A DNA stretch of 64,000 bases from Patescibacteria group bacterium (GTDB taxonomy: Bacteria > Patescibacteriota > Doudnabacteria > UBA920 > O2-02-FULL-48-8), in assembly GCA_036278915.1 (NCBI GenBank), contig DASUKB010000004.1, forward strand, positions 73,441 to 137,440, read 5' to 3'. Each line of letters opens with the position of its first letter. Position 1 is the stretch's first letter. A program made the translations under genes and the position numbers. Of this stretch, positions 8,691 to 49,680 are shown in pieces. Below the pieces are notes generated by a model. The model searched no databases. It was not told where the DNA came from and was given only the letters and a program-made list of their open reading frames with translations.

Positions 8691-8747
8691 TTGTCATCCT
8701 GAGCACAGAGAAGGATTTAGTATTCTTCGCTTCGCTCAGAATGACAA
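8691..8747. repeat. palindromic hairpin repeat, family 1, copy A (TGTCATCCTGAGC...GCTCAGAATGACA)
   Basis: TTGTCATCCTGAGCACAGAGAAGGATTTAGTATTCTTCGCTTCGCTCAGAATGACAA. An imperfect inverted repeat of about 23 bp per arm. It sits in the rplJ-rplL spacer. Near-identical copies are at 22024-22081 and 49621-49680, and a diverged copy at 49225-49286. Confidence 0.85.
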
Positions 8748-8755
8748 AAGATTAA

Positions 8756-9244
8756 TTATTGCTTTTTGTCCTTAATTGCATTAAGTGCGTACATCAGACC
8801 TCTGACATTTCCAGAAAGCACATATACGAAATTCGTGAGCAACTGTTGTTTGGACGGGATTGATGCAAGTTTGTTTACCATATCCGCGCCAATAAATTCA
8901 TGATTAAAAATTCCACCGTCAAAAATTATCTGCGGATTATCTTTGGTCATCCCCTTCAAAATTCTTGCCGGCGCTGTCTCTTCTTCTGCGGAAATTGCCA
9001 CTGCTATAGGTCCCGAATATTTAAGTCCGTCGGTAGATATTCCAAGTGCGGTCAGGGCTTTTTTGAGCAGCGTAATTTTTACGACTTTATATTTAACATT
9101 CTCCTGTCGCAAAGCTTTGCGCAAGCGATCCAACGCCTTTACGGTCATGCCGCGGTATTCGGAAAAGACCACTCCGCGAGCATCCTTAAGATCTTCGGTG
9201 ATCTGTTGTAGTGTTGCTTCTTTTTCTTTTCTACTTGTTGCCAT
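8756..9244 (-). CDS. rplJ: 50S ribosomal protein L10
   Basis: MATSRKEKEATLQQITEDLKDARGVVFSEYRGMTVKALDRLRKAL is the L10 family N-terminus. It lies upstream of rplL. Confidence 0.9.
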   Translation of the reverse strand: MATSRKEKEATLQQITEDLKDARGVVFSEYRGMTVKALDRLRKALRQENVKYKVVKITLLKKALTALGISTDGLKYSGPIAVAISAEEETAPARILKGMTKDNPQIIFDGGIFNHEFIGADMVNKLASIPSKQQLLTNFVYVLSGNVRGLMYALNAIKDKKQ

Positions 9245-9599
9245 AAAATTAGATTTAAGATTAAAGTTGTAAGATTTAAGTTGCTAACCCAAAATACAAG
9301 AGTTCGAAACTTAAATCTACCAACTTACAACTTCGAGCTAAATAAAAACTGTCTTTCCAAAGACAGTATCTGAGTTGATAAATCAACTAACTACATCGTA
9401 GTCAGCCGATTTATCGGCTCTGCTCCTGCTTAGCAGATTAAGGCATTTGATTCCTTCCCTTTAGAACTCCCCTCGCCCGTTCGCGGGAGAGGGCTGGGGG
9501 TGAGGTTGCCAGCTAAGGTCTTTGGAAATATTTAGTTCTCACGCAGTATATAGGAATTTTGAAAGCAAGTCAAGATCAATCGTAAGCAACGCCTAACCT
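9245..9599 (-). promoter_or_regulatory. structured 5' leader of rplJ (candidate L10-leader-type autoregulatory element)
   Basis: A 355-nt noncoding stretch containing several perfect hairpins: actgtctttccaaagacagt, agttgataaatcaact and agccgatttatcggct. It also contains repeat E1. Its position upstream of rplJ matches where L10(L12)4 autoregulatory leaders occur. Confidence 0.3.
9467..9513 (+). repeat. repeat family 2, copy E1 (TTAGAACTCC..CCCGTTCGCGGGAGAGGGCTGGGGGTGAGG)
   Basis: A CCCTCGCCCG/CGGGAGAGGG stem around a UUCG tetraloop, followed by a G-rich tail. Near-identical copies are at 59601-59650 and, reversed, at 14096-14150. Confidence 0.75.
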
Positions 9600-10049
9600 T
9601 TAATTTAGCTTACTTTTAATGGCTTTTTCAATAAGCCAGGAGCTTGATTGTATCTTTCCGCCAGCGCCTACATTAAATACCATTTTACAACCAATCCGTT
9701 TGCAAACTTCTGATTCAGGAACGTTGTTTGCGTCCCTGTCGCCACCATTAGCAAAAACGTCAGGTCTCAAATAAGCAAGCTCAACCGACACACTCATGTC
9801 CGATACATCTGGCTTGTGCATAGATAAAAACACTTCATCAACATATCGGATTGATTCAATTATTTCCTTGCGTTCATTTTCTGGCATGAAAACAAAATTC
9901 TTTTTCTTCATCAGCCAGTTGTCGTTATTTAAAATTACAATAAGTTTATCGCCGAGTTCCTTCGCTTCTTTAAATAGCCGTACGTGACCAGAATGAACAG
10001 GGTCAAAACCCCCAGAGACTACCACAACAGTTTCCTTTTTTTCTTTCAT
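9600..10049 (-). CDS. cytidylyltransferase-family nucleotidyltransferase (RfaE domain II / TagD-like)
   Basis: VVVVSGGFDPVHSGHVRLF carries the HxGH nucleotidyltransferase signature. The size and layout (149 aa) match heptose-1-phosphate adenylyltransferase or glycerol-3-phosphate cytidylyltransferase-like enzymes. Confidence 0.7.
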   Translation of the reverse strand: MKEKKETVVVVSGGFDPVHSGHVRLFKEAKELGDKLIVILNNDNWLMKKKNFVFMPENERKEIIESIRYVDEVFLSMHKPDVSDMSVSVELAYLRPDVFANGGDRDANNVPESEVCKRIGCKMVFNVGAGGKIQSSSWLIEKAIKSKLN

Positions 10050-10053
10050 AAAT

Positions 10054-11136
10054 TTATTTCAAATATTTTTGTTTATTCGCATTTTGCTCAGCAAGTGTCT
10101 TTGCAAAATAAGCGGTACCGTCTGGCGCGTTCAAAAAATATAAATAGTCGGATTGCGCCGGGTAGATGGCGGCCATAATAGAATCCAACCCAGGATTTGA
10201 AATCGGTCCGGGCGGCAAACCCGTGACTTGGTACGTGTTGTAGGGAGATTTGATTTTTGTGTCTTCGAGCGACACGGAAGGCGTGGATTTGCCAGTGATG
10301 TAATTGACAGTGGCGTCGGATTCCAGCGGCATGCCGATAGCAAGTCGGTTGTAGAAAACCGAAGCGACCAGTTCCCTCTCCTGGTGCATCGCGGCCTGGT
10401 CGTCGGTGGTAATCACAGTTTTGTTTCGGCCCACTTCTTTTTCTATAATTGATGCCAGCACAACCACATCGCCCAGACTGCGGTGCTGCTCTTCCATATC
10501 GCTGCGCATCTGCGCTGTAATCTTGGAGTCAAAGTTGGAAAGCATTTTTTGGACGAGGTCCTGTGCTGTCGTGTCTTTGGAAACAAGGTAAGTGTCTGGA
10601 AACAAAAATCCTTGGTAATTAAAATTTTGAGCTGTTGTCGAATCCGAAAAATTATAACCTGAGGAGTCGAGCGCGGTTTCAAAGTCTTCGGCGGACACAA
10701 CATTTAACTTTTCCAGATCTGAGGCAATCTGCCCGTTGGTCTTGCCTTCCACTACAGTGACCTTGCGCTCGGTGGATACGACCTTGCCGACCGTGAGAAC
10801 GTCGACGATCTGTACAACATTCATATCACGATCTAAAGCATAATTTCCAGCCTGGATCTTATCGGAGGCGTGCCGCAATTTGGTATAAAAAACGAACGAC
10901 CAATATGAGCCGATAACTTTTTCGTCACGGAGTTTATGCGCAATTGCGTATGTGCTTTCTCCCGGGTTGATGACTATATCGACCGGAACCGATACCGAGG
11001 ATGCGGCCTGGTTGATTTTCGTATAAAAATAAGCCCCCAGAGTAAGGAGCACGACTAATCCGAGCGAAATAATGAGGCTGATTATTTTGAACCAGCTGCG
11101 CCTGGGTTGGTCGATGAAAAATTCATGGTTTGACAT
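10054..11136 (-). CDS. mltG: endolytic murein transglycosylase MltG (YceG family)
   Basis: N-terminal TM helix. The C-terminal YceG signature reads ...YNTYQVTGLPPGPISNPGLDSIMAAIYP...YLYF. Confidence 0.8.
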   Translation of the reverse strand: MSNHEFFIDQPRRSWFKIISLIISLGLVVLLTLGAYFYTKINQAASSVSVPVDIVINPGESTYAIAHKLRDEKVIGSYWSFVFYTKLRHASDKIQAGNYALDRDMNVVQIVDVLTVGKVVSTERKVTVVEGKTNGQIASDLEKLNVVSAEDFETALDSSGYNFSDSTTAQNFNYQGFLFPDTYLVSKDTTAQDLVQKMLSNFDSKITAQMRSDMEEQHRSLGDVVVLASIIEKEVGRNKTVITTDDQAAMHQERELVASVFYNRLAIGMPLESDATVNYITGKSTPSVSLEDTKIKSPYNTYQVTGLPPGPISNPGLDSIMAAIYPAQSDYLYFLNAPDGTAYFAKTLAEQNANKQKYLK

Positions 11137-11324
11137 ACTGACATTATGCCAAAATTAAACCCTGCAATCAATGAGCTGCCGAGACTTGCCAAGTTGGCTG
11201 AAATTTGCTATAATATGTATGTAAGTTAAAATTTTCCGAAACAAAATCAAAATTTAGGAAAACAAATCAAATAGAGAGCAATCGGTTCTTTATTTTTCTT
11301 TTGTTTTTACTCGCAAACACAAAA

Positions 11325-11801
11325 ATGTTCACGAAATTAAAATTTGGCATCCTTTTGGGTGCGATACTTCTGAGCACGGGGCTTGCCCGCCCGTTTTCTT
11401 CGTTATCCATGAACCAGATTATGAGCATGGTCAATGCAGATCGGGTAAGTCAAGGTTTGCCGCGGCTTGATCTGGACCCAACTCTAAATCTGGCGGCTCT
11501 GGCCAAGGCTGATGATATGATAACCAACCATTACTTTGCGCATACTTCCCCGGACGGAGTTGCCCCTTGGTACTGGATCAAAAACGTCGGCTATAATTAC
11601 TCCTATGCCGGTGAAAATCTGGCACTCGGCTTCCAGGACGCATCAGATCTTATGAACTCCTGGATGAACAGCCCAGACCACAGAGCTAATATTCTTTCCC
11701 CTAACTACCAAGACATGGGACTGGCCGTTATCCAATCCTCCGATTCAACTTTGGTTGTGCAGATGTTCGGCTCGGTAAACCATCTCTCGTTGAACAAATA
11801 G
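11325..11801 (+). CDS. secreted CAP/SCP/PR-1 domain protein
   Basis: Signal peptide followed by a CAP-domain motif set (NADRVSQGLPRL; HYFAHTSPDG; GENLA; MNSPDHRANIL). ATG chosen at 11325, because the provided ORF begins at a TTG. An extended -10 TGcTATAAT is present at about 11205. Confidence 0.7.
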   Translation: MFTKLKFGILLGAILLSTGLARPFSSLSMNQIMSMVNADRVSQGLPRLDLDPTLNLAALAKADDMITNHYFAHTSPDGVAPWYWIKNVGYNYSYAGENLALGFQDASDLMNSWMNSPDHRANILSPNYQDMGLAVIQSSDSTLVVQMFGSVNHLSLNK

Positions 11802-11915
11802 ATTTTACCTTACGACACACAACTCCAGTCGCTGACCGGAGTTTTTATTTTTGCCAAAATCAGGGTTGACAAAGCCTGCGTTTACTGCTAGACTCGAAGG
11901 CTTCCCGCAACGCAT

Positions 11916-12581
11916 ATGGATAAAGTTTTAACCCTTATTGCTGTGACGTTCATATACTCGTACGAAGAGCTCAAGGCCTTGTTTTTAAACCTGGTCTACA
12001 AATTTTTTAGAAACAAAAAATATTATTATTCACGCTCAGACAAAATTATATCGGACGCGGTCCTTTTGGCGGCAGTGCCGATTGCCATGACCTGGTATTT
12101 ACGAGGAGCGGCTGGGTTAGAAAAAAACTTACTCGTGCTGCTGCTTCAATTGTCCGCCATCTTTGCGGTGCTAAGTGTTTTGCGATTCGTTGTAAAAAAT
12201 TTTCGCATACCAGAACCAGTTATTACTTACGCTCAATCAATTATGACTTTGGGCGCGGCAACAGGTAAACTCGTTGCGCAACCGGCGCGCATGTTGCAGC
12301 TTGACTCGGCTGAACGTTTAAAATTTTTCTCCAAATTCATTTTCGCCATTGTCATGTCAACTCTCGCGGTGCTTTTGCTTGAACGACTTATAAAAATTTA
12401 TGTGCCCGCAAATTTATCGAACGAGTACGCTCTGCTTTTGCTCGTTTTGGCAGCCGCGCTTTTTCTGCAAAGCGCAATCCCCCATCTTGAAAATATTCTG
12501 TTCCATCCGAAAATAAAATTCTCCGGCTACTTACGCATCATCGCCGGCATCTTGCTTGCTGCATACCTTGTGGTGAAATAA
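11916..12581 (+). CDS. hypothetical polytopic membrane protein
   Basis: 221 aa with about six predicted TM helices. A TTGACA-17-TAGACT promoter lies at about 11868-11896. Confidence 0.45.
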   Translation: MDKVLTLIAVTFIYSYEELKALFLNLVYKFFRNKKYYYSRSDKIISDAVLLAAVPIAMTWYLRGAAGLEKNLLVLLLQLSAIFAVLSVLRFVVKNFRIPEPVITYAQSIMTLGAATGKLVAQPARMLQLDSAERLKFFSKFIFAIVMSTLAVLLLERLIKIYVPANLSNEYALLLLVLAAALFLQSAIPHLENILFHPKIKFSGYLRIIAGILLAAYLVVK

Positions 12582-12612
12582 ACCCAGCCCCTCCTGAGGG
12601 GCTGGGTTTTTG
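12582..12612. terminator. bidirectional terminator
   Basis: cccagcccctcctgaggggctggg hairpin followed by TTTTT. Confidence 0.6.
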
Positions 12613-12672
12613 AAATTTATCTTGCGGGAAAACGGTTAAACCAAAAATTTATTTTCCTACAAGGTCAATTGA

Positions 12673-13356
12673 CTACTTGATGCGGATGTCGCGTTCGATC
12701 TTATCGAGCGCGCGCGATGCATGCTCGCGTCCGCCGAGACCGAATGCCAAACCTCCGGCGATTGCCAACATGGCTATGATGCCGGTAAACAATGTCTGGA
12801 CAAATGCAGTGGCCACGTTCAGCTGGGCCAAAGTTGCCAGGATTGTAAAGATCATGATGGCCCACTGGGTGACGGTGCCAAGCAGGTCAGCCGAAGCAAG
12901 CCCCGCGGCCTGCACTGAGTGCTTGACCAGCCGGGACAGAAATCCAGCGACCATAGTGCCGACCAGCATAATTGCGGCAGCAGCGATGACGTTCGGGATA
13001 TAGAGCAAAACCTGGTTTAAGAAATCCGAAACCTGGTTTAAGCCTAGGATGTTTGCCGCGGCCAAAAAGATAGCCACGAGCAAAAACCACTTGACCAGCC
13101 AAGCAATAGCGCCTGAGATGGACATTTTAACGCCGGTTCGGGCAGAAACCTGGTCCAAACCGAGCTTGTCTCCAACTTCGTCCACGTGGACAGCATGCAA
13201 AGCCTGCTTTATAAGCTTGGCAATTGCTACAGCCACAATCCATCCAACCACCAAAACAATGACCGCAACCAGGAAGTTGGGAAGGAAATTGACGAAACGG
13301 GCATAGACATCCTGCAGAGACGCCTGCACTGGCGAAAGATAATTAGTGTTATTCAT
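12673..13356 (-). CDS. membrane protein with conserved TM-helix repeats (mechanosensitive-channel-like family)
   Basis: Three repeated amphipathic/TM helix units of the type found in MscS-like N-terminal regions, for example LVGTMVAGFLSRLVKHSV. Confidence 0.45.
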   Translation of the reverse strand: MNNTNYLSPVQASLQDVYARFVNFLPNFLVAVIVLVVGWIVAVAIAKLIKQALHAVHVDEVGDKLGLDQVSARTGVKMSISGAIAWLVKWFLLVAIFLAAANILGLNQVSDFLNQVLLYIPNVIAAAAIMLVGTMVAGFLSRLVKHSVQAAGLASADLLGTVTQWAIMIFTILATLAQLNVATAFVQTLFTGIIAMLAIAGGLAFGLGGREHASRALDKIERDIRIK

Positions 13357-13590
13357 AGTTACACCCCCAATTCATTACTTATCATTCGACCTTTGGTTAA
13401 TTTTTCCAATTACTTGGAAATAAAGCAAAAAATCTCACAACTGCGGCAGAATATCCGAAACGAACGAAAAAGCCACAACCCCAAAGTCTGGGTTAGTGGC
13501 TCCTATGCATAATCTTGTTGTCGTGTTTAAGTTCCATTCAGAATTTTCTCTTGCGTTTGCATTATGACACACGTCATTTTAACTGTCAAG

Positions 13591-14034
13591 CTAATATGTC
13601 CGTTTACGCATGGAATCAAGTCCGAAAATTCGTCCCGCGTTGAACGCCGAAAGCAATAAAAATCCCAAACCATAAATTATATGCTCATCAACTATATATG
13701 AGCTTGAGTCAGAAGTTAAGTGTGGGAAATTAAGCACCGGGAAATAATATAAAAGCATCAGGAGTGCCGCTGCGCGAGCCGACCATTTGACCCACAGCCC
13801 CAGTATAAGCGACACGCCAATCGCTATCTGGCCCCAAACATTGAGAAAATCCACAACCTTAAGCGTCCTGGCGCTAGCCAGTGCATGGTAAAACCCTGCA
13901 AAAGTAGAAGCGTGGTTAAGATACGAAGCCGCAGAAAACGCCGTCGGGGCCATAAGTTTGCTCCAACCAGCATAGAACATAAGCCAGCCCAAACCCAGGC
14001 GAAGCAGAAGCAAAAGGAATTTTTTGTAAGTCAT
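13591..14034 (-). CDS. DoxX-family membrane protein
   Basis: RLGLGWLMFYAGWSKL is the DoxX-type first helix, and the protein has four TM helices. Confidence 0.65.
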   Translation of the reverse strand: MTYKKFLLLLLRLGLGWLMFYAGWSKLMAPTAFSAASYLNHASTFAGFYHALASARTLKVVDFLNVWGQIAIGVSLILGLWVKWSARAAALLMLLYYFPVLNFPHLTSDSSSYIVDEHIIYGLGFLLLSAFNAGRIFGLDSMRKRTY

Positions 14035-14095
14035 TTTGTTTCAATAAGTTTACCGCACGGCTTCATTATACCCCCAACCCCTGCTTTTGAACATC

Positions 14096-14150
14096 CCGCT
14101 CTTTCCCCTCACCCTCTTTTCCCTCTCCCAAAGGGAGGGGGAAGTTCCAA
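14096..14150 (-). repeat. repeat family 2, copy E2 (reverse orientation)
   Basis: The reverse complement reads GGAACTTCCCCCTCCCTTTGGGAGAGGGAAAAGAGGGTGAGGGG, which matches E1 and E3. Confidence 0.65.
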
Positions 14151-14168
14151 TCTGTAGACGAACCAAAC

Positions 14169-14199
14169 AAAAACCGCCCCGTATTGTTGGGGCGGATTT
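14169..14199 (-). terminator. terminator downstream of hup
   Basis: aaaaaccgccccgtattgttggggcggattt hairpin. Confidence 0.6.
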
Positions 14200-14210
14200 G
14201 GTTTCTGAAA

Positions 14211-15177: not shown

Positions 15178-15191
15178 CCCGCGTGGTTTTT
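15158..15191 (+). terminator. rho-independent terminator
   Basis: aaccacgtggagtctccatgacccgcgtggtttttt. Confidence 0.55.
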
Positions 15192-20189: not shown

Positions 20190-20284
20190 AACCTTCCTCC
20201 ATTCAGAAGTAGGACTATAATAACAAAAAACAGCCTCAATGACGAGACTGTCTTCCTGGCAGCGAGCTTGGGATGAGGTGGGAG

Positions 20285-20758: not shown

Positions 20759-20832
20759 AACGCAAGTTTAACAAAAAACAGCCTCATTGACGAGGCTATC
20801 TTTTGGCAGCAAACTTGGGAGAAGGCTGAAAA

Positions 20833-21453: not shown

Positions 21454-21607
21454 ATCCTAAGCATAACAAAAAACACTAGCAATAGCTAGACAATCTCGGG
21501 CTGGTCGATTGGACAGTAGAAAGACAGTGCTGCCTTCCCTCACTTCTGCCCGTTCGATTCCTACGATGACTATCAAAAAAGCGCCACGCAGAAGCGTGTC
21601 GCTTTTT

Positions 21608-21681
21608 TGGCAGGGGGTGTAGGAATCGAACCTACGCCAACGGTTTTGGAGACCGCAGTACTACCACTATACTAACCCCCC
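21608..21681 (-). tRNA. tRNA-Trp (anticodon CCA)
   Basis: Minus-strand GGGGGGTTAGTATAGTGGTAGTACTGCGGTCTCCAAAACCGTTGGCGTAGGTTCGATTCCTACACCCCCTGCCA. Cloverleaf with anticodon loop CUCCAAA. Confidence 0.85.
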
Positions 21682-21691
21682 TCATAGGGAA

Positions 21692-21946
21692 CTATTTAAT
21701 CCCTAATCGTTTTAATAACCCTGTATAGGACGATCCAAAATCTTTTAATTTCTGTTCTCTGTTCAGAGCCGCAGCTTTATCGGGATAAGCTTCAAAGTAA
21801 ATCAATTTTAAAGGCAGTCGACTACTTGTAGATTTGACCTTGCCTGGATTATGGAGGTTGAGCCGTGACATTACATCTTCGGTGTAGCCGATATAAAATC
21901 CATTATCTTTCAGACTTTGCAAGAGGTAAACGAAATGCATATCCAT
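21692..21946 (-). CDS. GIY-YIG domain nuclease (small free-standing)
   Basis: MDMHFVYLLQSLKDNGFYIGYTEDVMSRLNLHNPGKV...IYFEAYPDKAAALNREQKLK carries the GIY..YIG and conserved R, E, N positions. Start set at ATG 21946. The ORF caller's longer N-terminus just translates the tRNA remnant. Confidence 0.7.
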   Translation of the reverse strand: MDMHFVYLLQSLKDNGFYIGYTEDVMSRLNLHNPGKVKSTSSRLPLKLIYFEAYPDKAAALNREQKLKDFGSSYTGLLKRLGIK

Positions 21947-21950
21947 ACTA

Positions 21951-22023
21951 TGGGTGTAGGAATCGCCCCGCCTCTCGCGAGGTGGGGTTGGAGACCGCAG
22001 TACTACCACTATACTAACCCCCC
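21951..22023 (-). pseudogene. tRNA-Trp pseudo-copy (nt 1-37 intact, middle replaced by a 22-nt hairpin, 3' end degenerate)
   Basis: 22023-21989 is identical to tRNA-Trp positions 1-37, ending exactly after the anticodon loop A37. Then comes CCCCACCTCGCGAGAGGCGGGG, then CGATTCCTACACCC (T-arm 3' part). There is no acceptor 3' strand or CCA. Confidence 0.6.
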
Positions 22024-22081
22024 TCGTCATCCTGAACGCAGTGAAGGACCTTTGGATTCTTCGCTTCGCTCAGAATGACAC
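22024..22081. repeat. palindromic hairpin repeat, family 1, copy B
   Basis: TCGTCATCCTGAACGCAGTGAAGGACCTTTGGATTCTTCGCTTCGCTCAGAATGACAC, abutting the 5' end of the tRNA-Trp pseudo-copy. Confidence 0.85.
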
Positions 22082-22088
22082 AATATTA

Positions 22089-22244
22089 CTATTTAGTTTC
22101 TTTGTGTTCGGTGTGCTTTTTGCACCATTTGCAAAACTTGCTCGTAACCAAACGGTTTGGAGTCAGTTTTTTGTTCTTGCGGGAATGGTAGTTTATGTGA
22201 TGGCAAACCGTACATTCCATGCTAATCAAATTGTCCTGCGACAT
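22089..22244 (-). CDS. rpmG: 50S ribosomal protein L33
   Basis: ...MECTVCHHINYHSRKNKKLTPNRLVTSKFCKWCKKHTEHKETK shows the L33 zinc-ribbon pattern and the C-terminal KHT.HKE.K. Start at MSQDNLIS. Confidence 0.8.
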   Translation of the reverse strand: MSQDNLISMECTVCHHINYHSRKNKKLTPNRLVTSKFCKWCKKHTEHKETK

Positions 22245-22267
22245 ACTGTTCCTTTCTAAAAAGTTTA

Positions 22268-22392
22268 TTAGCGAGTACACTGACAAAATTAGCCTTCGCA
22301 GGCGGCCTCAGCCGCCGAGAAAGCAGGATGCAAAAATTGACCTTCCAATGTCAATTTTTGACATCCGGTAATTTTGTCAGCGTACGAGCGAT
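22268..22392 (-). promoter_or_regulatory. structured leader between tRNA-Thr and rpmG with long inverted repeats
   Basis: Arms ttagcgagtacactgacaaaattag and taattttgtcagcgtacgagcg flank an inner hairpin (gcggcctcagccgc) and a second inverted repeat (caaaaattgaca...tgtcaatttttg). Confidence 0.35.
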
Positions 22393-22396
22393 TTCC

Positions 22397-26207: not shown

Positions 26208-26227
26208 TGGTGGGCAGGATAGGATTC
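26201..26227 (+). repeat. 27-nt direct repeat (copy 1) = tRNA-Tyr 3' end plus downstream T-run
   Basis: TTTTTTCTGGTGGGCAGGATAGGATTC is identical to 26334-26360. Confidence 0.8.
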
Positions 26228-26333
26228 TCATTCGCCGCTTGAGCGGCTCCTTACGGGGTTGCGGCTGCGACTTAGGTCTTGCCTCACTTCAACCCGTTCG
26301 AATCTACTATAGAAAAAATCCAGGTTAAAACCT

Positions 26334-26360
26334 GGATTTTTTCTGGTGGGCAGGATAGGA
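26334..26360 (+). repeat. 27-nt direct repeat (copy 2), overlapping the tRNA-Tyr 3' end
   Basis: Identical 27-mer. The two copies bracket a 106-nt hairpin-rich segment (26228-26333). Confidence 0.8.
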
Positions 26361-26430
26361 TTCGAACCTATGAAGGCGCAAGGCCAGCTGATTTACAGTC
26401 AGCCGCGTTTGACCGCTTCGCTACCTGCCC
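26344..26430 (-). tRNA. tRNA-Tyr (anticodon GUA), class II long variable arm
   Basis: GGGCAGGTAGCGAAGCGGTCAAACGCGGCTGACTGTAAATCAGCTGGCCTTGCGCCTTCATAGGTTCGAATCCTATCCTGCCCACCA. Confidence 0.85.
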
Positions 26431-30819: not shown

Positions 30820-31719
30820 ATGACTATTCACGACCTTATAAAAGTTGCGGAAAAGAAACTCAAAAACAGCACCTCGCCCGTACTGGACGGCGAAGTGCTG
30901 TTGTCTTTTGTAATCAGGAAACCCAGAGAATACCTGCTGGCAAACCCAAGGCGAAACGTAAACCCCAAATTTGAAAAAATCTATTTCCGACTCATCAACA
31001 AGCGCCTCCTGGGCTGGCCCGTGGCATACCTCACCAAACATAAAGAATTTTTCGGACTCAATTTCTACGTCGACAAAAACGTACTCATCCCCCGTCCGGA
31101 AACGGAAGGGCTGGTAGAGAGAGTAATTGATTACGTAAATAATTACGTAATCAAAAAGCAGCTCAATATCCTTGATGTCGGTACTGGCTCCGGATGCATT
31201 ATAATCTCACTCGCTAAAAATCTAGGCCGCAAAAATCACTACCTTGCTTCGGATATTTCGCCGCGCGCCATAAATATTGCCAAAAAAAATGCCAAACTGC
31301 ACAAAACCAAGGTAACATTTGGGGACGGCAATTTGCTTGAACCCTGGCTTGTCCGCAGAAACCCCCGCTCCATTGCGACCACGGCAGTAAGCCGAGTTAG
31401 CGGAGGCGGAGGAGACATGAAATTCGACATTATAGTCGCAAACCTCCCATATCTTAAGCGCGAATCAGACCCATCTACCAAATTTGAACCAAAGGGCGCG
31501 CTCATCGCCGCCAAAAAAGGTACGATGCTTTATGAAGAACTGTTTAAACAAACCTCATCCCTTACCTCTCTCCCCTCATCTCTGTTTATCGAAATCGGCC
31601 GGGACCAAGGACCGATTATAAAAAAAGTGGCCAAGAAATATTTACCAAATTACAAACCTCAAATTTACAAAGACCTTTTCGGCCGGACGCGCTACGCCAG
31701 CATGCAAAAAGTTAATTAA
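30820..31719 (+). CDS. prmC: release factor glutamine N5-methyltransferase PrmC (HemK)
   Basis: SAM motif LDVGTGSGCI and catalytic motif IIVANLPY (an NPPY variant). It lies directly downstream of prfA. Confidence 0.8.
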   Translation: MTIHDLIKVAEKKLKNSTSPVLDGEVLLSFVIRKPREYLLANPRRNVNPKFEKIYFRLINKRLLGWPVAYLTKHKEFFGLNFYVDKNVLIPRPETEGLVERVIDYVNNYVIKKQLNILDVGTGSGCIIISLAKNLGRKNHYLASDISPRAINIAKKNAKLHKTKVTFGDGNLLEPWLVRRNPRSIATTAVSRVSGGGGDMKFDIIVANLPYLKRESDPSTKFEPKGALIAAKKGTMLYEELFKQTSSLTSLPSSLFIEIGRDQGPIIKKVAKKYLPNYKPQIYKDLFGRTRYASMQKVN

Positions 31720-38697: not shown

Positions 38698-40539
38698 ATG
38701 GATTCAAAATCTGAAAAACTCCATAATCTCCGTCACTCTCTGGCACATATTTTAGCCTCCGCCGTAACAGAGATGTTCCCCAAAGCCCAACTGGGCGTAG
38801 GTCCTGTTATAGAAAACGGGTTCTTTTATGATTTCTTGCTGCCACGCCCGCTTACTCCGGAAGATCTCAAGAAATTGGAAAAACGCATGCGCGAATTGGT
38901 CAAACAAAAACTCCCGTTTGAACGAAACGAAATGCCGATTGCCGATGCCAAAAAATATTTCAAAGAAGCTAACCAGCCGTTCAAAGTACAGCTCATCGAG
39001 GACATAGAAAAATTTGGAACCACAAAAGCCGATGAGATCCTAAGCCAGGGGGGAGAGCGAAGGGAAGACAAGGGGAACACTTCCAAGCGCTCGGACGCAG
39101 TTCCCTCTCGCAATTCCCTTCCCCCTACGGTTTCCCTCTATAAGACTGGTCGCTTTACCGACCTCTGCCGCGGCGGGCACGTAGCAACCACATCAGAAAT
39201 CGATCCCCAATCTTTTAAACTAGACAAGATCTCCGGGGCTTACTGGCGCGGTGATCAAAAAAATCCCCAGATGCAAAGAATCTACGGCCTGGCCTTTGAG
39301 AGTAAAGAGGAACTGGAAAATTACGTCCGACTCCAAGAAGAAATAATCAAACGCGACCACCGCGTGCTTGGGCCCAAACTCGGATTATTTCTGTTCAACG
39401 ACATGGCGCCCGGCATCCCCTTTTACCAGCCCAAAGGCATGATCGTACGCAATGAATTGGAAAAATTCGTGCGCGAAGTTTCGTACGGACCAGGATATTC
39501 AGAAGTGAGACTGCCGCAGATGTTTGATTCGGAACTTTGGAAAATTTCCGGCCACTGGGAACACTACAAAGACGATATGTTTGTCTTTGACGTGGAGAAC
39601 CGAAAATTTGCGCTCAAGCCCATGAACTGCCCGGGACACATGCTGCTCTATAAGCAGGGTTTGTATTCATATAAAGATTTGCCGCTGCGGTTTGCGGAAA
39701 TGACAACCCTGCATCGCAATGAACTCACCGGCGCGCTCTCCGGCCTTACCCGCACCCGCGCGTTTGCGCAGGACGACTGCCATATATTTCTCACTCAAGA
39801 TCAAATTGAAAAGGAAGTTGTAGAGCTCCTTGCCCGCACCAAACGGATTTTCGACACCTTTGGCATGGAAATTGAGGACGTGGTAGTCTCCACGCGGCCG
39901 GACCAGGCTTTGGGCACAAAGAAGGAATGGGACGAAGCAGAAAAATCTTTGGAGGCAGCACTTAAGAAAGCCAAATGGAAATATGCTATCAATCCCAAAG
40001 ATGGCGCATTCTACGGACCCAAAATCGATATGCGCATCCGCGACGTGCTGGGACGCAAGTGGCAGCTGGCCACAATCCAGCTGGATTTCCAAATGCCGCA
40101 GAGGTTTGGCCTGGAGTATGTGGACGCGCACGGCCAGAAACAGACGCCGATAGTCATCCACCGCGCCCTGCTGGGATCTTTTGAAAGATTTTTGGGAATT
40201 ATGATTGAACACTTTGCGGGAGCACTTCCCGTCTGGCTGGCACCTGTGCAGGTCAAAATCCTGCCGATTACGGATAAGCAAAATAAATATGCCCTCGCTC
40301 TCGCAGTTGATCTTGCTGCTGAGCAAATCCGAGTGGAAGCCGACGACCGATCGGAATCCGTGGGCAAAAAAATCCGGGAAGCGGAAATGGAAAAAGTCCC
40401 CTATATGCTTATAGTCGGCGAAAAAGAAGCCAAAGCCAAAACAATTTCCGTGCGCAGCCGCAACAAGGATCTGGGCTCAATGAAATTGCAAAAGTTTATA
40501 GATAAAATCCAGGATCAAATCTCCAAACGTTCGTTATAA
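38698..40539 (+). CDS. thrS: threonyl-tRNA synthetase (lacks N-terminal TGS domain)
   Basis: SAD/editing motifs (HSLAHIL; DLCRGGHV), class II motifs, and the anticodon-binding domain. Confidence 0.9.
   Translation: MDSKSEKLHNLRHSLAHILASAVTEMFPKAQLGVGPVIENGFFYDFLLPRPLTPEDLKKLEKRMRELVKQKLPFERNEMPIADAKKYFKEANQPFKVQLIEDIEKFGTTKADEILSQGGERREDKGNTSKRSDAVPSRNSLPPTVSLYKTGRFTDLCRGGHVATTSEIDPQSFKLDKISGAYWRGDQKNPQMQRIYGLAFESKEELENYVRLQEEIIKRDHRVLGPKLGLFLFNDMAPGIPFYQPKGMIVRNELEKFVREVSYGPGYSEVRLPQMFDSELWKISGHWEHYKDDMFVFDVENRKFALKPMNCPGHMLLYKQGLYSYKDLPLRFAEMTTLHRNELTGALSGLTRTRAFAQDDCHIFLTQDQIEKEVVELLARTKRIFDTFGMEIEDVVVSTRPDQALGTKKEWDEAEKSLEAALKKAKWKYAINPKDGAFYGPKIDMRIRDVLGRKWQLATIQLDFQMPQRFGLEYVDAHGQKQTPIVIHRALLGSFERFLGIMIEHFAGALPVWLAPVQVKILPITDKQNKYALALAVDLAAEQIRVEADDRSESVGKKIREAEMEKVPYMLIVGEKEAKAKTISVRSRNKDLGSMKLQKFIDKIQDQISKRSL
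39046..39128 (+). repeat. purine-rich/pyrimidine-rich palindromic segment embedded in-frame in thrS
   Basis: GGGGGGAGAGCGAAGGGAAGACAAGGGGAAC ...21 nt... GTTCCCTCTCGCAATTCCCTTCCCCCT. This encodes the low-complexity loop GGERREDKGNTSKRSDAVPSRNSLPP just before the conserved LY..G.F.DLCRG block. Confidence 0.5.
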
Positions 40540-44252: not shown

Positions 44253-44256
44253 TTTA

Positions 44257-45981
44257 TTATTTTAATCCTACGGTTGGTTTCGTTTGAATTTTAGCATAAA
44301 TATCGCTTGGGTCCCACCAGGAGATCTGCGGATTTATAGACGGAATCTGCGAGGCGTCCAGTCCATGAGCTGCAGCCATGTCCATTACTTTGGCATCATC
44401 AATTTTATAAATACGGCGAATGGGATTTTGCATGACCAAATCATAATACTGCGTAAGTTCGGGGTTTTTCCCCCACTTGACCATAATCTCATCGTTTTGC
44501 TCAGACCAAGCGTCGTTGTCGTCTGGATTATGCATAACTATGTAACGGGCAAACAGCCACGGCTCGGTATCGGCCTGGTCAAAATATTTATAGTTGCCTT
44601 CGTAAATATAATTTGAAAGCGGTACATGAGCCTGCGAAAGAATCGGATCATTGTCGGCTTTAGTCAACAGGATTTTTCCATAATCATAGTTGTTGGCAAG
44701 ATACTGCATAGCCTCCACCTGCCCTGGCAGGGGCGAGTTGATGTCGTCCTTAATGACGCTGAATTTTTGCGCAACCACGACCTGGTACGACTGGTAGACG
44801 CCGAGCCCCAAAAGCGCCACGGCCAAAACAACGCGCACGGAATTCGCTATCCAGCCCATCCACCTGCGGTTGGATCGACTGAAATAATATGCAACGGCGC
44901 TTATGAGAAGCACGGGCACCAGAATCGTAAATCCAATCCAGGTCAGGCTGTAGCGTTCGTTTGAGAAAAAATTATATGGCGGGAGGTTTGCCACCAGCAC
45001 CGAACCCGTGCCCGTGACCAAAGTCATAAGCACAAACACAAATGGGCTGGCCAGCACGGTCAAAATTGCCATGGACCGAAATTTTTTGCCTGAAAGCACG
45101 GCAAATACAACTAAACTTCCAACCGACACCCACACCAGCGGCTTGGATAGCATATAGAATGATGAGTACACCAGATATTTAACCGACATTAGAACATTGC
45201 CCTTGGTGAAAGCCGTAGCGTTGCCAGAATTTTTAATCCAACTGCCGCCGGTGAATGCCAAAGGACTCCCGCCAAAAACCCAACTGTAAATGAAAATTGC
45301 CACAAGTCCTAAACACGCCGGAATCAAAAACAACAGCAGTACCGCTTCTTTCTCGGAATAATTTTTCCGTTTGCGCGTCAGCTGGATAAATATAATCAAC
45401 GATACTAATGGAATGAGGATTAGTCCTTCAAACCGCGACAAACATGTAAGCGTAACGAACACGCCGGTTAAAACCAGCCATTTAAGCTTCTGTTCTGCAA
45501 GCCACTCGGCCAAAAAATATGCAGTGCCAAATAAATTCGCTAAAAACAAAACTTCCATCATTGGCGTCACGCTGAAATACAAAATATAAGGATTGACGAC
45601 CAAAAGCAGCGCCGCAACAAAACTTAAAAATTTATCGTTCGTATAAAGATACGCAAGCCTATATAAGAATACCGCTGCCACCATAAGCGCAGGAATTAGC
45701 ACCACAGCGCCTGCCCCGCCGGACTGGTAAAGGCTCGTGATAAGCGTAAACGGCATCATCAAAATATGCAGCAGGGGCGGCCAGAATCCGATCTGCGAAA
45801 TTCCGGGAGTCATGCTGTCGAACACGAGCCTCGATGCATCCAAATGCGCGTTCTGGTCAGTCAAAAATTTTACCAGGCCCAAATTTTGGACCCAGGCATA
45901 CATCGCCAGGCCAAATAGGCCTGTGATGATCACGAGCGCAAGTTCTATTTTAGGTTTCTGTTTGGGGAAGTTTGATTGCAT
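44257..45981 (-). CDS. polytopic membrane protein, possible GT-C-fold glycosyltransferase
   Basis: 574 aa with 12 or more TM helices and loops bearing acidic motifs. It is co-directional with, and overlaps, the GT2 gene. Confidence 0.4.
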   Translation of the reverse strand: MQSNFPKQKPKIELALVIITGLFGLAMYAWVQNLGLVKFLTDQNAHLDASRLVFDSMTPGISQIGFWPPLLHILMMPFTLITSLYQSGGAGAVVLIPALMVAAVFLYRLAYLYTNDKFLSFVAALLLVVNPYILYFSVTPMMEVLFLANLFGTAYFLAEWLAEQKLKWLVLTGVFVTLTCLSRFEGLILIPLVSLIIFIQLTRKRKNYSEKEAVLLLFLIPACLGLVAIFIYSWVFGGSPLAFTGGSWIKNSGNATAFTKGNVLMSVKYLVYSSFYMLSKPLVWVSVGSLVVFAVLSGKKFRSMAILTVLASPFVFVLMTLVTGTGSVLVANLPPYNFFSNERYSLTWIGFTILVPVLLISAVAYYFSRSNRRWMGWIANSVRVVLAVALLGLGVYQSYQVVVAQKFSVIKDDINSPLPGQVEAMQYLANNYDYGKILLTKADNDPILSQAHVPLSNYIYEGNYKYFDQADTEPWLFARYIVMHNPDDNDAWSEQNDEIMVKWGKNPELTQYYDLVMQNPIRRIYKIDDAKVMDMAAAHGLDASQIPSINPQISWWDPSDIYAKIQTKPTVGLK

Positions 45982-48145
45982 AAGTTTCTAAAGTCTCCTC
46001 TTTGGCTGCGAGGTGTTTGCCATGCACGGTCTTGGACCAGTGGTGCGGCGAGTACATAAATTCCGCGGCAGCGCGCACAGACGCCACAGCCAGCAAAATC
46101 CAGTATAACGGCGACAGCAGGCCGTATTTGACCGCGTTGTATCTCCCGCGCTGATAACTTGAGACGAGGTTAAGATAAACGAAGATTATATTGCCCGCAG
46201 CAAACGAGATTAATGACGTATAAAATATCGGACTTGGGAACAGCGACTGTATGAGGTGCGAATGCGTGGCAAACCATCCAACAAGCAATCCCCAGTACAC
46301 GAGGTTGGCAATGTTGATTACCACCGAAGCCGGCACCGTGATCGCAAATGCAAACAGCCCCGCCCAACCGATCCCAACTTCACGCTTAAATCGTAAAGGA
46401 TGTCGCAAGTGCACGATCGAAGTTTGGATAAAGCCCTTAATCCAGCGCGTGCGCTGCGCAACCCACGGATAGATCGAAGTCGTCGCCTCTTCGCGGCTCA
46501 CAGAATCCAAAATTTCCACTTTTTTGCCGGCGCGCGCAAGCTTGATTCCTGTATCCGCATCTTCGGTAACGTTGTATGGATCCCAAGCGCCAATGTCCTC
46601 AAGCGCGGATTTGCGGAAGTGCACGCTGTGACCGGAAAGCGGAATCGGATAGCCGAGTTTTTGCAAACCAGGCAAAAGCATATCAAAATGGAATGCGAAT
46701 TCTTCGTTGAACAGACGTGTAATCAAACTTTGCTCCGGATTGTAATGGTCGAGCCTGGTCTGCAGCGCATCCACTTGCGGAAATTTCTGAAATGCCAAAT
46801 ATGCTTTCTTAAGCTGGTCAGCATCGGGTATGATCTCCGCATCGTAAATGACGAGGAATTCCCCATGCACCTGCGGGAACGCCACATTCAGAGCTTTCGG
46901 TTTGGTCTTGGGCTGCACGTCGGGCAAAATTAGCGTTCGGAAATGCGCGGGCGGATTGGCGTCGGCAATGGCTTCTATAGTTTCCGTATCATACTCCTCA
47001 AGCGTGATTATAATTTCCAATTTCTCCGTGGGATAGTCAATCGCACTCATAGCGGTGATAATTTGGCGGATCACGGCTGCCTCTTTGTACAAAGGCACAA
47101 GTATCGTGTACATGGGCAAATCATAAGGATTAACCGATTCTATTTCTTCCGGGGAAATATCCAAAAATTTTTGGGTCGTCGCATGGTAGATTACGCGCAA
47201 TTTAAAGGCCATCATCACCACGTAAAACACGGCCATAATTCCCGAAATTATTACAAGCGACGAAATTCCAGTCAGCCGGTGCAGGCCGTAAATTGTGGCA
47301 GACAAGACGAACAAAATCGTCAAAACCAAACTTACTGTCTCCAAATACAACGTACGCTTGGCGCTCATAATCTGCGGCGTATACACAAAATCCCAATTAT
47401 TGTTCCAGTTATTCCCCAGCCGCTCGCTTGGGTGCGGGTATTCCAGAAATTTTAAAATTCCAAACAGGAAATATTTGAATCTAAGCTTCAATGCGCCAAA
47501 TCCCAGTTCCAGTCCGGTACTCAAAACGCTTACGTTGGACTTGCCGTGCATGCGGCCGGTAAATTGTATGTCGGTCTGCGCAATCCTCCAGCCCAGACGT
47601 TTGGCCTTAAACAGGAAGTCATAATCGAAACCCCAAGCGGAAGGCTTGAGCCGAACGCTTGCACAGACTTGCTTGCGGAAAACTTTAAGCCCGGACTGTA
47701 CGTCATACGGCAATCCCAAAAGCATCCGGCCAAAGAAAAATTTATATATTTTGCTGGAAATTTTACGGAAATTCCCGGCATCCGCGAATTGGCGGTTGCC
47801 GACCACGATATCTGCATCGGTAAGCTGTAATACCATTTGCGGTATGGCTTCGGGCGGATATTGCAAGTCCGCGTCAATCATAGCAATGATTTCACCTTTG
47901 GACTCCACAATGCCCTCCAGAAGCGACGTCGCTTTGCCTCGCGCGCCTTGTTTGGTGAGCAGACGGATATGCTCACGCGGGTATTTGGATTTAAGCGCGC
48001 GCAAAAATTTGGCCGTACCATCCGTCGAATGATCGTCGACAAAAATGAGCTCATGCGCAAGCCCGATCAGCGATTGGGCCAAACGATCGACGAGTGAGGC
48101 AAGGTTGTCCTCTTCGTTGTAAGTGGGGATGATTATTGAAAGCAT
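45950..48145 (-). CDS. dual-domain family-2 glycosyltransferase (N-terminal DPM1-like GT2 + TM region + processive GT2 with QxxRW)
   Basis: N-domain IIIPTYNEEDNL...IFVDDHSTDGT...IDADLQ. C-domain YTILVPLYKE...YDAE...TEDADTG...QRTRWIKG, which are the D, D, TED and QxxRW motifs of processive beta-glycan synthases. Multiple TM helices lie between and after the two domains. Confidence 0.75.
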   Translation of the reverse strand: MLSIIIPTYNEEDNLASLVDRLAQSLIGLAHELIFVDDHSTDGTAKFLRALKSKYPREHIRLLTKQGARGKATSLLEGIVESKGEIIAMIDADLQYPPEAIPQMVLQLTDADIVVGNRQFADAGNFRKISSKIYKFFFGRMLLGLPYDVQSGLKVFRKQVCASVRLKPSAWGFDYDFLFKAKRLGWRIAQTDIQFTGRMHGKSNVSVLSTGLELGFGALKLRFKYFLFGILKFLEYPHPSERLGNNWNNNWDFVYTPQIMSAKRTLYLETVSLVLTILFVLSATIYGLHRLTGISSLVIISGIMAVFYVVMMAFKLRVIYHATTQKFLDISPEEIESVNPYDLPMYTILVPLYKEAAVIRQIITAMSAIDYPTEKLEIIITLEEYDTETIEAIADANPPAHFRTLILPDVQPKTKPKALNVAFPQVHGEFLVIYDAEIIPDADQLKKAYLAFQKFPQVDALQTRLDHYNPEQSLITRLFNEEFAFHFDMLLPGLQKLGYPIPLSGHSVHFRKSALEDIGAWDPYNVTEDADTGIKLARAGKKVEILDSVSREEATTSIYPWVAQRTRWIKGFIQTSIVHLRHPLRFKREVGIGWAGLFAFAITVPASVVINIANLVYWGLLVGWFATHSHLIQSLFPSPIFYTSLISFAAGNIIFVYLNLVSSYQRGRYNAVKYGLLSPLYWILLAVASVRAAAEFMYSPHHWSKTVHGKHLAAKEETLETYAIKLPQTET

Positions 48146-48690
48146 AAATTTCCTTCCACTAAAGCTTACTTAAAAGCATGCATCAGTGCCTACTGTGCAA
48201 TCGGGTCAACAAGTTGGAATTAAAAAAAAATTTATTGGTAAGTTTGACAGGCCGAAAAAGTTTTCTCCATTTTTCAGGACAAGCAAATTAATATTTTCAG
48301 ACGCGCCTCGTTACTTTTGCTTGGATTTTTTGTATAATGTGAACAGGGACGCACCAACAAATCAGGCCATTGTTCTGGCTTGCAAGCACAATGCACCTTC
48401 ATTGGTTCGGATGGTTTGCATAATCCACAGGTAGTCGAAAAGCTTGATTTTGCGTATTTTGACCTAAGTAACAACCTCCAAAAAATTTCGTCACTGACAC
48501 AATATGCCTGGACAATCATCACATAAATTGAAAGCAGACTCATTCGCCGAAATTTCAACGAAAGCAGAACGCCGCGAAAGCAAAAATCGCCAGCGTATGA
48601 AACAGCACGGCGCGTCTTTGAAACGCCCCTCCAAATTCTCCGGACTCAAACTCGCTAAAAAGAAATAAGCATGGTTTAGCTAGAAGAAAA

Positions 48691-49632
48691 GTGACAAAGA
48701 AATTTATGCATAGATTAATAATAATTTTGGGTCCCACCGCCTCCGGCAAATCATCTCTTGCAATTAAACTTGCAAAAAAGTTTAAGGGCGAGATTATTTC
48801 CGCAGACAGCAGGCAAGTCTATCGCGGCATGGATATCGGCACTGGCAAGATTTCCAAAAAAGAACAACGCCTGGTACCGCACTATTTGATGGACGTTGCA
48901 AATCCCAAAAAACAGTTCACCGTCTCTGACTTCAAAAAGCTAGGAGCCCAGGCAATCGAAAGAATCAAGAAAAAACATAAATTGCCGTTTATAGTTGGCG
49001 GCACGGCCTTTTATATCTATTCGCTCATAGACGACTGGCAGATTCCGGAAGTTGCGCCAAATAAAAAATTACGTAATACATTACGTAATAAATCCACCAG
49101 GGAACTTTTTGCCATGCTCCAAAAACTGGATCCGAGGCGCGCGGCCAACATAGACTCACGCAATCCCGCGCGCCTCAGCCGCGCGATTGAGATAGTCAAA
49201 ACGACAGGTAGGCCAGTGCCCTCCCTGTCATCCCCGACTCCGATCGGGGATCTTAATAAAGATTCCCGCTTCCGCGGGAATGACACAAAGGTTTTATTAC
49301 TTGGTATCCGCAAAGACCAAAACGAGCTTTACAAGCTTATCGATAAGCGCTTGGAAGAAAGATTGAGGTCAGGAATGGTTGCAGAGGTAAAAAAACTTCA
49401 CAAATCTGGTTTGTCTTGGAATAAACTAGAAAGCTTTGGTCTAGAGTACCGCTTTGTTTCTCTTTATTTACAAAATAAATTATCTTATAGAAAAATGGTA
49501 GACCAGCTCAAATCCGCCATTCATAAATTTTCCAAACGCCAGAATACATGGTTTAAACGCGACACTCGGATCCATTGGATCAAAAACGAAAAAGAAGCTC
49601 GGAAACTGATTAAGCCTTATCTGTCATCCTGA
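48691..49632 (+). CDS. miaA: tRNA dimethylallyltransferase
   Basis: P-loop IIILGPTASGKSSLAI...ISADSRQVYRGMDIGTGK is the MiaA signature. The stop codon TGA lies inside repeat copy C. Confidence 0.85.
   Translation: MTKKFMHRLIIILGPTASGKSSLAIKLAKKFKGEIISADSRQVYRGMDIGTGKISKKEQRLVPHYLMDVANPKKQFTVSDFKKLGAQAIERIKKKHKLPFIVGGTAFYIYSLIDDWQIPEVAPNKKLRNTLRNKSTRELFAMLQKLDPRRAANIDSRNPARLSRAIEIVKTTGRPVPSLSSPTPIGDLNKDSRFRGNDTKVLLLGIRKDQNELYKLIDKRLEERLRSGMVAEVKKLHKSGLSWNKLESFGLEYRFVSLYLQNKLSYRKMVDQLKSAIHKFSKRQNTWFKRDTRIHWIKNEKEARKLIKPYLSS
49225..49286 (+). repeat. palindromic hairpin repeat, family 1, copy D, in-frame inside miaA
   Basis: CTGTCATCCCCGACTCCGATCGGGGATCTTAATAAAGATTCCCGCTTCCGCGGGAATGACAC shares its termini (TGTCATCC...GAATGACA) and central GGATCTTAATAAAGATTC with copies A-C. 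It encodes SSPTPIGDLNKDSRFRGND, an approximately 20-aa loop not present in, for example, E. coli MiaA. Confidence 0.7.
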
Positions 49633-49680
49633 ACGTAGTGAAGGATCTCATAAGATTCTTCGCTGCGCTCAGAATGACAA
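49621..49680. repeat. palindromic hairpin repeat, family 1, copy C
   Basis: CTGTCATCCTGAACGTAGTGAAGGATCTCATAAGATTCTTCGCTGCGCTCAGAATGACAA lies between the convergent miaA and gatB genes. It overlaps the last codons and stop of miaA. Confidence 0.85.

Follow-up and report, generated by a model that had tools for sequence, protein, structure and literature searches.

The DNA analysed here (the window) is a stretch of 64,000 nucleotides from a Doudnabacteria-like member of the candidate phyla radiation (CPR), placed near Candidatus Doudnabacteria by its named MiaA and RplJ relatives, and taken from contig DASUKB010000004.1 of assembly GCA_036278915.1 (positions 73,441 to 137,440 of the forward strand). 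It carries four copies, A to D, of a short palindromic repeat, which are probably inverted dimers of hairpins from the superfamily of CGTC-tagged repetitive extragenic palindromes (REPs). Copy A is flanked by rplJ (8756-9244, minus) and rplL (8218-8586, minus). Copy B has rpmG (22089-22286, minus) on one side and on the other, with zero gap, a duplicate of the tRNA-Trp 5' half, 37 nt long. Copy C occupies the space between the convergent genes miaA and gatB, where it faces the gatB 3' end, and copy D lies inside miaA. A preliminary description, made from the sequence alone, had given these contexts for A, B and C, and the copies were matched one base inside its limits on each side.

That the four sites hold a genuine repeat family, as first described, was borne out. 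A degenerate 23-nt arm pattern matched these window copies only, with 0.00 matches expected (100 shuffles), and both arms were retrieved as three-copy families (D9 and D11) by a repeat search of the window. Copies A, B and C are nearly identical; the common termini and centre attributed to all four hold for these three, and D has only the termini in common with them. Copy D is 60 bp long, lies in frame in miaA and encodes the peptide LSSPTPIGDLNKDSRFRGND. Copy C was correctly said to cover the last codons of miaA and to supply its TGA: the open reading frame (ORF) ends CTG TCA TCC TGA at 49632, so that the copy gives Leu-Ser-Ser-stop.

Module structure and covariation

All four copies consist of two modules of about 25 nt in inverted order, with the tags pointing outward (Table 1). 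A module is an unpaired (T/C)GTC tag followed by a hairpin of 8-9 pairs that begins with AT and by a conserved C after the stem; copy B has CGTC as its outward tag, and the other three copies have TGTC. In A to C the minus-strand module is of one kind (T-type, GTCATTCTGAGCGAAGCGAAGAATC, layout ATTCT-GA-GC-GNA-GC-GA-AGAAT) and the plus-strand module of another (C-type, GTCATCCTGAACGCAGTGAAGGATC, layout ATCCT-GA-AC-GCA-GT-GA-AGGAT), both pairing with themselves as ATYCT-GA-RC-GNA-GY-GA-AGRAT over 9 stacked positions. A variable linker of 3-18 nt joins the two. Copy D joins a CCCCGA-type module, GTCATCCCCGACTCCGATCGGGGATC, to a CCCGCG (dRS3-like) module, GTCATTCCCGCGGAAGCGGGAATC; both have 8-bp stems starting with AT, and the loop is GGAA in the right module and 6 nt long in the left.

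Table 1. Repeat copies, host gene and neighbouring cassette in the window (T-type and C-type as defined in the text)
Feature	Position	Strand	Description
Copy A	8692-8746		Inverted dimer in the rplJ-rplL spacer; left module 8693-8717 (+), C-type, decayed; linker 8718-8720; right module 8721-8745 (-), T-type, GTCATTCTGAGCGAAGCGAAGAATA
Copy B	22025-22080		Inverted dimer with rpmG on one side and the tRNA-Trp 5'-half copy on the other; left module 22026-22050 (+), GTCATCCTGAACGCAGTGAAGGACC; right module 22055-22079 (-), GTCATTCTGAGCGAAGCGAAGAATC
Copy C	49622-49679		Inverted dimer over the miaA end; modules 49623-49647 (+) and 49654-49678 (-)
Copy D	49226-49285		Inverted heterodimer of two other module types, in frame in miaA; left module 49227-49252 (+), GTCATCCCCGACTCCGATCGGGGATC; right module 49261-49284 (-), GTCATTCCCGCGGAAGCGGGAATC, NTS/dRS3/CGTC-1-like
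miaA	48691-49632	+	tRNA dimethylallyltransferase gene, intact; host gene of D and C
GIY-YIG cassette	21608-22024	-	37-nt tRNA 5'-half copy reaching to the anticodon loop, hairpin CCCCACCTCGCGAGAGGCGGGG, CGATTCCTACACCC, 84-aa ORF (21946-21692), intact tRNA-Trp (21681-21608)

Covariation was scored in 156 modules collected with a search pattern that left the scored pairs free. Positions 6/22 were T-A in 98 modules, C-G in 57 and other in 1 (155/156 Watson-Crick); positions 11/17 were G-C in 129, A-T in 24 and other in 3 (153/156). All four combinations of the two pair types were seen. Non-Watson-Crick pairs made up 4 of the 312 pair observations, and intermediates of the G.U/G.T kind were almost absent on either strand. 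Because the compensatory changes within modules are this strict, the local hairpins are the selected structure, and the data show that selection keeps the local hairpin of each module rather than a long stem. The long stem of A to C (20-25 pairs predicted) exists because two similar modules stand back to back; the T/C differences inside a dimer weaken it and leave both local hairpins intact. Folding did predict one long imperfect hairpin for each of A to C and, for D, two local hairpins that the termini close, as in the preliminary description, but the distinction drawn from this does not reflect a real difference, all four being inverted dimers of hairpins of about 25 nt by covariation.

Of 159 cores, 138 had T and 14 had C immediately before GTC, a position outside the search pattern. 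The tail of the cores is C, then mostly T-C, the first C being part of the pattern. For copies selected by pattern it is circular to cite GTC and the post-stem C as conserved, and this conservation was not used as evidence.

Comparison with known repeats

The CGTC-tagged REPs were divided by Di Nocera, De Gregorio and Rocco (2013; PMC3733652) into families CGTC-1 to CGTC-4, which include dRS3 of Neisseria and the Rickettsia palindromic elements (RPE) RPE-6 and RPE-4 of R. conorii. Their tag is CGTC with TGTC or CCTC variants, often TGTC; the stems are of 8-9 bp with A-T and T-A as the first pairs, the loop is of 4-5 nt, and the short tail has the consensus CCA. Most occur as dimers in inverted orientation, many of them heterodimers; they frequently lie between genes that run in one direction or converge, they overlap ORF ends, and intragenic dimers encode 20-30 aa. 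CGTC-1 is both Neisseria dRS3 and R. conorii RPE-6, and R. conorii genes carry SFPRKRES...DSRFRGND. The hosts reported are Proteobacteria, Chlorobi, Bacteroidetes, Spirochaetes and Thermotogae (PMC3733652).

The window copies resemble this superfamily in their tag, in stems of 8-9 pairs that start with AT, in their arrangement as inverted dimers or heterodimers, in their overlap with gene ends and in an intragenic dimer of 20 aa, and copy D encodes the same DSRFRGND peptide as the R. conorii CGTC-1 (RPE-6) dimers. They differ in a host phylum new to the published list, in the tail (mostly C-T-C rather than CCA) and in very short linkers of 3-10 nt. The dimer organisation and the coding insertions of the superfamily are thus already documented; what is new here is the phylum and a partly new module type. 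The earlier opinion that coding insertion is unusual does not stand, intragenic dimers of 20-30 aa having been catalogued in 2013 (PMC3733652). The comparison with Rickettsia palindromic elements turned out to be closer than the analogy intended, since the right module of D is a dRS3/NTS/CGTC-1 sequence and CGTC-1 is RPE-6 in R. conorii.

RPE-1 of Rickettsia, which Ogata and colleagues are said to have described in 2000, reportedly inserts palindromic DNA in frame, at surface-exposed positions, into conserved genes of a small genome. It is about 100-150 bp long and is not a tagged-REP dimer. Copy D resembles it as an in-frame palindrome in a conserved gene, and RPE-1 is the longer element; the window elements correspond to the shorter RPE-6-type repeats.

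The Neisseria NTS sequence, CGTCATTCCCGCGMAVGCGGGAATCYRG, forms a hairpin that is bound as single-stranded DNA (ssDNA) and cut just upstream by small single-domain GIY-YIG proteins, the Ssn proteins (Chenal et al. 2025; PMC11893778). The GTC before the palindrome and the C after it are critical for cleavage and binding, and related motifs (SRM) flank ssn genes in many phyla (PMC11893778). The right module of D agrees with the NTS consensus at 24 of 28 positions and equals the NTS core save one loop base; it has GTC before and C after its palindrome, with the tag setting the orientation. The N. gonorrhoeae ssnA locus (94-aa homologue), used as a positive control, gave 16 modules in 3.2 kb, with several tags-outward pairs, and spurious ORFs at this locus encode SFPRRRES and DSRFRGND.

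The arrangement also recalls REPINs (Bertels and Rainey 2011; PMC3116915), in which two inverted hairpin repeats together with their short spacer appear to make up the unit of evolution, singlets seem to be remnants, target duplications are lacking and a single trans-acting enzyme on ssDNA hairpins is suspected. The window repeats differ from the REPIN/RAYT system in that the tag is TGTC/CGTC and not GTAG, and the suspected enzyme is of the GIY-YIG kind. No RAYT (IS200/IS605 Y1) gene is implicated in the window case, for which no RAYT search was made.

Distribution and dimer arrangement

Further copies, proposed in the preliminary description as a check on the family, are present in related and unrelated genomes. 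Other loci are cited below by L numbers and proteins by P numbers. Matches of 25-30 nt at 96-100% identity were found for A-C-type modules in Calothrix, Granulicella and Phocaeicola records and for D-type modules in Francisella, with weaker D-type matches in Neisseria, Legionella, Sphingopyxis, Azospirillum and Sulfurovum. In IMG/VR, scanning for exact patterns gave at least 120 stretches, on contigs classed as viral, with exact T-type or C-type modules (loci L162-L241).

Among the IMG/VR matches listed, pairs were arranged with tags outward in 11 cases, with tags inward in 2 and in tandem in 1. An inverted RRATGAC end lay within 90 nt downstream in 37 of 130 modules, against 16 on the control side, and about 70% of the modules were single. 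Linkers across dimers range from 3 to 41 nt. The T+C heterodimer, with linkers of 5-18 nt and unrelated flanks, was found three times in the window and also in L286, L285, L067 (Doudnabacteria) and L235, and so in at least 5 genomes. Densities were obtained with a strict module detector, which gave 0 modules in shuffles and replaced a loose one (18-35 in shuffles vs 67 observed). They were 0.062 modules per kb in the window, 0.007-0.012 in other CPR loci and 5 at gonococcal ssnA.

The dRS3/NTS/RPE-6 superfamily is thereby extended to the Patescibacteria, a phylum of very small genomes outside the scope of the two defining papers. Modules shared at 96-100% by CPR, cyanobacterial, Bacteroidota and Acidobacteria records and by IMG/VR contigs point to a conserved recognising protein or to frequent transfer.

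Filled and empty sites and coding insertions

At the rplJ-rplL site, the window (spacer of 169 bp) and L286 (110 bp) hold a dimer, and L285 (49 bp) has none. The L286 dimer stands at the same junction as that of the window, where CAATAATTAATyTTy is followed by TGTCATTC..., and in L285 CAATAA runs directly to GGTCGA, a like dimer lying instead upstream of rplJ. At the miaA-gatB junction no such element was found in L282, L283 or L284. In L282 miaA and gatB overlap, and miaA goes on ...TTATCTGCAGAACTCATAA against ...TTATCTGTCATCCTGA in the window. These filled and empty orthologous sites suggest that the repeats are, or were, mobile.

Copy D was confirmed as an in-frame insertion of about 20 aa, as first described, by the alignment of MiaA orthologues that had been suggested: the segment from TGxPVP to LG is 34 aa long in the window and 19-21 aa in 50 of 80 metagenomic orthologues. 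The window MiaA keeps every column that is invariant across 34 aligned orthologues, which is true by definition. In an AlphaFold (AF2) model of this protein the mean predicted local distance difference test score is 83, with values below 50 only at residues 1-3 and 183-198. The latter lie within the insert, between a helix (159-172) and a strand (201-206), and the insert is accordingly modelled as a low-confidence, probably disordered surface loop.

Dimers of the form GTCAT...ATGAC occupy the miaA loop of four DNA loci, in one frame in the window and L082 and in another in L092 and L145, with different offsets. Read in two frames, the modules yield unrelated peptides, LSFPRKRES and VIPAKAGIQ-like. 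Peptides alone indicate A-C-type dimers in the MiaA loops of P0002, P0015 and P0055 and single CGTC-1 modules, LSFPRKRES, in P0012 and P0018; the insert type of P0097 was likewise assigned from its peptide, and so was that of the RplJ protein P0158. A fourth type, RNPELDSGS, was confirmed at the DNA level in L284. A FolD-like gene in L126 carries an in-frame CGTC-1-type dimer of 84 bp (4572-4655, peptide VISAQAGIQKSVVSNKKKRLDPRLREDDK). Repeats of CPR genomes thus lie in the housekeeping proteins MiaA and FolD, apparently as disordered loops. Palindromes of unrelated families sit in about 20 of 81 miaA loops, and the loop is therefore a permissive site in general; an insert of some kind is present there in roughly a quarter of the 81 orthologues. 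Such unrelated in-frame inserts were seen in L096, L097, L103-L105, L113, L125, L126, L139 and L158 of other CPR lineages, for example PLLKRGAGGDF...PPFVKGR and LVIRNPDKKNPNYQLPITNY.

The repeats also affect gene calling: in CPR annotation they give rise to spurious ORFs and to proteins falsely extended at the N or C terminus (MKDL..., ...RFFAPLRMT), and masking is advised. The spurious window ORFs 22041-22259 and 49638-50051 begin within copies B and C. MiaA P0047 starts with MRFFAPLRMT, and the terminal ATG of the element may be its true start. In L287 (343-1077), where a different palindromic element stands in the rplJ-rplL spacer, the gene call adds 45 aa to RplJ. Extensions that read PPFAKGGV are found at the N terminus of several GIY-YIG homologues (P0129, P0130 and P0134 are among the proteins with distorted gene calls).

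Proposed mechanism and alternative explanations

It appears likely that the four loci are inverted dimers of hairpins of the CGTC-REP superfamily, to which dRS3/NTS, RPE-4/RPE-6 and the Ssn-related motifs belong, and that in this CPR host they are recognised as ssDNA by a trans-acting protein. Under this mechanism each module would act as a single-stranded DNA hairpin recognised in a sequence-specific manner, and the most likely candidate for the recognising protein would be an Ssn-type single-domain GIY-YIG ssDNA endonuclease encoded outside the window. With tags outward, such an enzyme would cut just upstream of each tag, on opposite strands, so that the dimer would be bracketed by the cuts. 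The dimer would then be a REPIN-like non-autonomous unit, spread or converted via single-stranded intermediates without target duplications. Copies would persist only where they are harmless, namely in operon spacers, at convergent gene ends, and in disordered surface loops if their length is divisible by three and they leave the frame open.

Several observations weigh against this interpretation. The published SRM expression HGTCWYN(0-2)YYVSBRHN(0-5)WNVSBRGN(0-2)RNCYNB gave 0 matches on both window strands; the right module of D fails at one loop base, with G where H is required, and for the A-C modules the mismatch lies in the stem. Instead of the 4-5-nt loops of the published families, these modules have tandem G.A pairs and a triloop, GNA. 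As isolated DNA hairpins, the D modules and Neisseria NTS reach -7.7 to -9.0 kcal/mol, and the T and C modules are weak (-1.9 and -1.6 kcal/mol, no better than shuffles), so that the A-C type is supported by covariation and not by energy. GIY-YIG ORFs were absent from 520 kb of miaA loci and from 734 kb of module-bearing IMG/VR loci, and no repeat-flanked Ssn gene was found in the window or in the loci examined. Dimers occur in the window at about 1 per 16 kb, a low copy number, and as the linkers of the copies are unequal, a recent spread of entire dimers by copy-and-paste is not demonstrated. A more far-reaching proposal, in which the tags-outward dimer is the replicative unit of an Ssn (GIY-YIG)-dependent counterpart of REPIN-RAYT active in CPR genomes and the miaA loop is a safe harbour with nuclease-triggered module swapping, is regarded as doubtful. 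Such swapping, if it took place, would explain at least four module types at one position, in two frames, in close relatives.

The repeats might instead act mainly as RNA, with transcribed hairpins stabilising or processing mRNA or terminating transcription, as has been proposed for many REPs. The position of A and B in or beside minus-strand transcription units and of C at convergent 3' ends matches the reported location bias of REPs, and RNA folding of the dimers is strong for either strand (z -4.1 to -8.1). This explanation is nevertheless unlikely. No T run follows A to C, which were not called in a terminator scan, and the terminator-like site near C lies at 49734-49760, outside the copy. 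Termination at A, inside the rplJL operon, would be harmful, and D is translated. Rfam matches in the window came nowhere near gathering scores other than for tRNAs, the best of the others scoring 17-22 bits against thresholds of 40-111 (E up to 10). Neither strand folds consistently better, and with only 4 of 312 pair observations outside Watson-Crick rules, the near-absence of G.T-type intermediates and the lack of strand preference fit a DNA-level or two-strand constraint better than RNA structure. A strand asymmetry, with G.U pairs favouring the minus-strand RNA of A and B, had been considered and was dropped: both strands have two wobbles and three mismatches, and the energies give no consistent preference.

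Another candidate recogniser stands next to copy B, where the one GIY-YIG ORF of the window (84 aa; 21692-21946, minus) lies 75 bp away and could be the cognate Ssn-type nuclease, with B as its flanking repeat. The ORF encodes a single-domain protein, Ssn genes are typically flanked by repeats, and the product shares 29% identity over 70 aa with the SsnA homologue of N. gonorrhoeae (E 3e-13 in the pairwise comparison; probability 97.7 by hhalign). Ssn proteins have been defined by a single GIY-YIG domain of less than 150 aa, a blastp match to SsnA with E <1e-10 and at least 75% cover, and repeats on both flanks. Here the coverage of SsnA is 74% (70/94 residues), just below that limit, the dimer is on one side only, and the protein is nearer to UPF0213 BH0048 (E 2e-8) than SsnA is (E 0.1). 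Of 80 homologous loci, 0 had a GTCAT hairpin within 200 bp, module density near the gene was not raised, and the clade sits at or in tRNA genes instead (41/80 loci). This pairing is very improbable, and the ORF was rejected as the partner nuclease on the 80 homologous loci without flanking modules. A classical miniature inverted-repeat transposable element (MITE), derived by deletion from an insertion sequence, bounded by terminal inverted repeats and moved by a DDE transposase, would account for short, dispersed copies with inverted ends TGTCAT...ATGACA. The inverted ends are, however, self-pairing hairpins with internal covariation, linkers vary from 3 to 41 nt, and the flanks of all four copies have no common direct repeat that would represent a target-site duplication. 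With most modules elsewhere unpaired, an origin of this kind is more improbable still; of the MITE/REP-like mobile hairpin first proposed, the REP part holds, in its CGTC-tagged form, and the MITE part does not. Chance similarity or peptide-level convergence of loops has virtually no likelihood. It could appeal to the shortness of the termini common to D and A-C, but zero matches are expected by chance, coding and non-coding copies share DNA sequence, and one module type is read in two miaA frames as unrelated peptides.

GIY-YIG cassette and other repeats

The GIY-YIG gene belongs to a layout that recurs in its homologues. A same-strand tRNA lies within 250 bp in the 41 tRNA-associated loci of the 80 (L001-L080, from CPR and other phyla), and in 29 of the 80 an intact same-strand tRNA, mostly Trp, stands 5-130 bp downstream. 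An upstream 20-42-nt copy of the tRNA 5' part, followed by a CCCCGCC...GGCGGGG hairpin, is present in 13 of those 29 loci, and the window shows exactly this order of tRNA copy, hairpin, ORF and tRNA. Some homologues (L025, L037, L051) adjoin 23S rRNA-like sequence. The cassette looks like a separate homing-type element that regenerates its tRNA target, to judge from this arrangement. No group I intron model of Rfam matched, and a GIY-YIG/tRNA cassette is not among the subjects of a recent paper that deals with group I introns in the tRNA genes of Patescibacteria.

One further module-like stretch, GTCATCCACCGCGCCCTGCTGGGATC at 40153-40178 inside a coding region, has tag and tail with only about 4 stem pairs and is probably a chance match. 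Beyond copy C, the miaA-gatB spacer (49681-49760) contains the hairpin GGTACGTACGCCGTACGTACC (~49683-49703) and the perfect palindrome GCTCAGAGCATGCTCTGAGC (~49706-49725), neither of which is present in the relatives L282-L284. L283 does have a counterpart of the terminator-like hairpin AAAACCGCCTCTGAGGCGGTTTT at 49734-49760. The rplJ-rplL spacer carries a palindromic repeat ATTACGAATTACGCATTACGAATTCATTCGCAGTTCGCAATCCGTAAT (8600-8665), to which the TTACGTAAT-type arms at 31126-31151 and 49068-49093 are related, and a 40-nt AT-rich inverted repeat lies upstream of rplJ (9249-9341). A 29-nt partial copy of the tRNA-Tyr 3' end (26208-26236 vs 26344-26372, 72% identity), 136 bp from the gene, may be a remnant of integration at that tRNA. 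The 34-nt motif TAACAAAAAACAGCCTCAATGACGAGACTGTCTT follows three consecutive minus-strand genes (20221-20254, 20769-20802 and 21464-21497), with an inverted relative at 60566-60596, and may be a shared terminator or promoter element.

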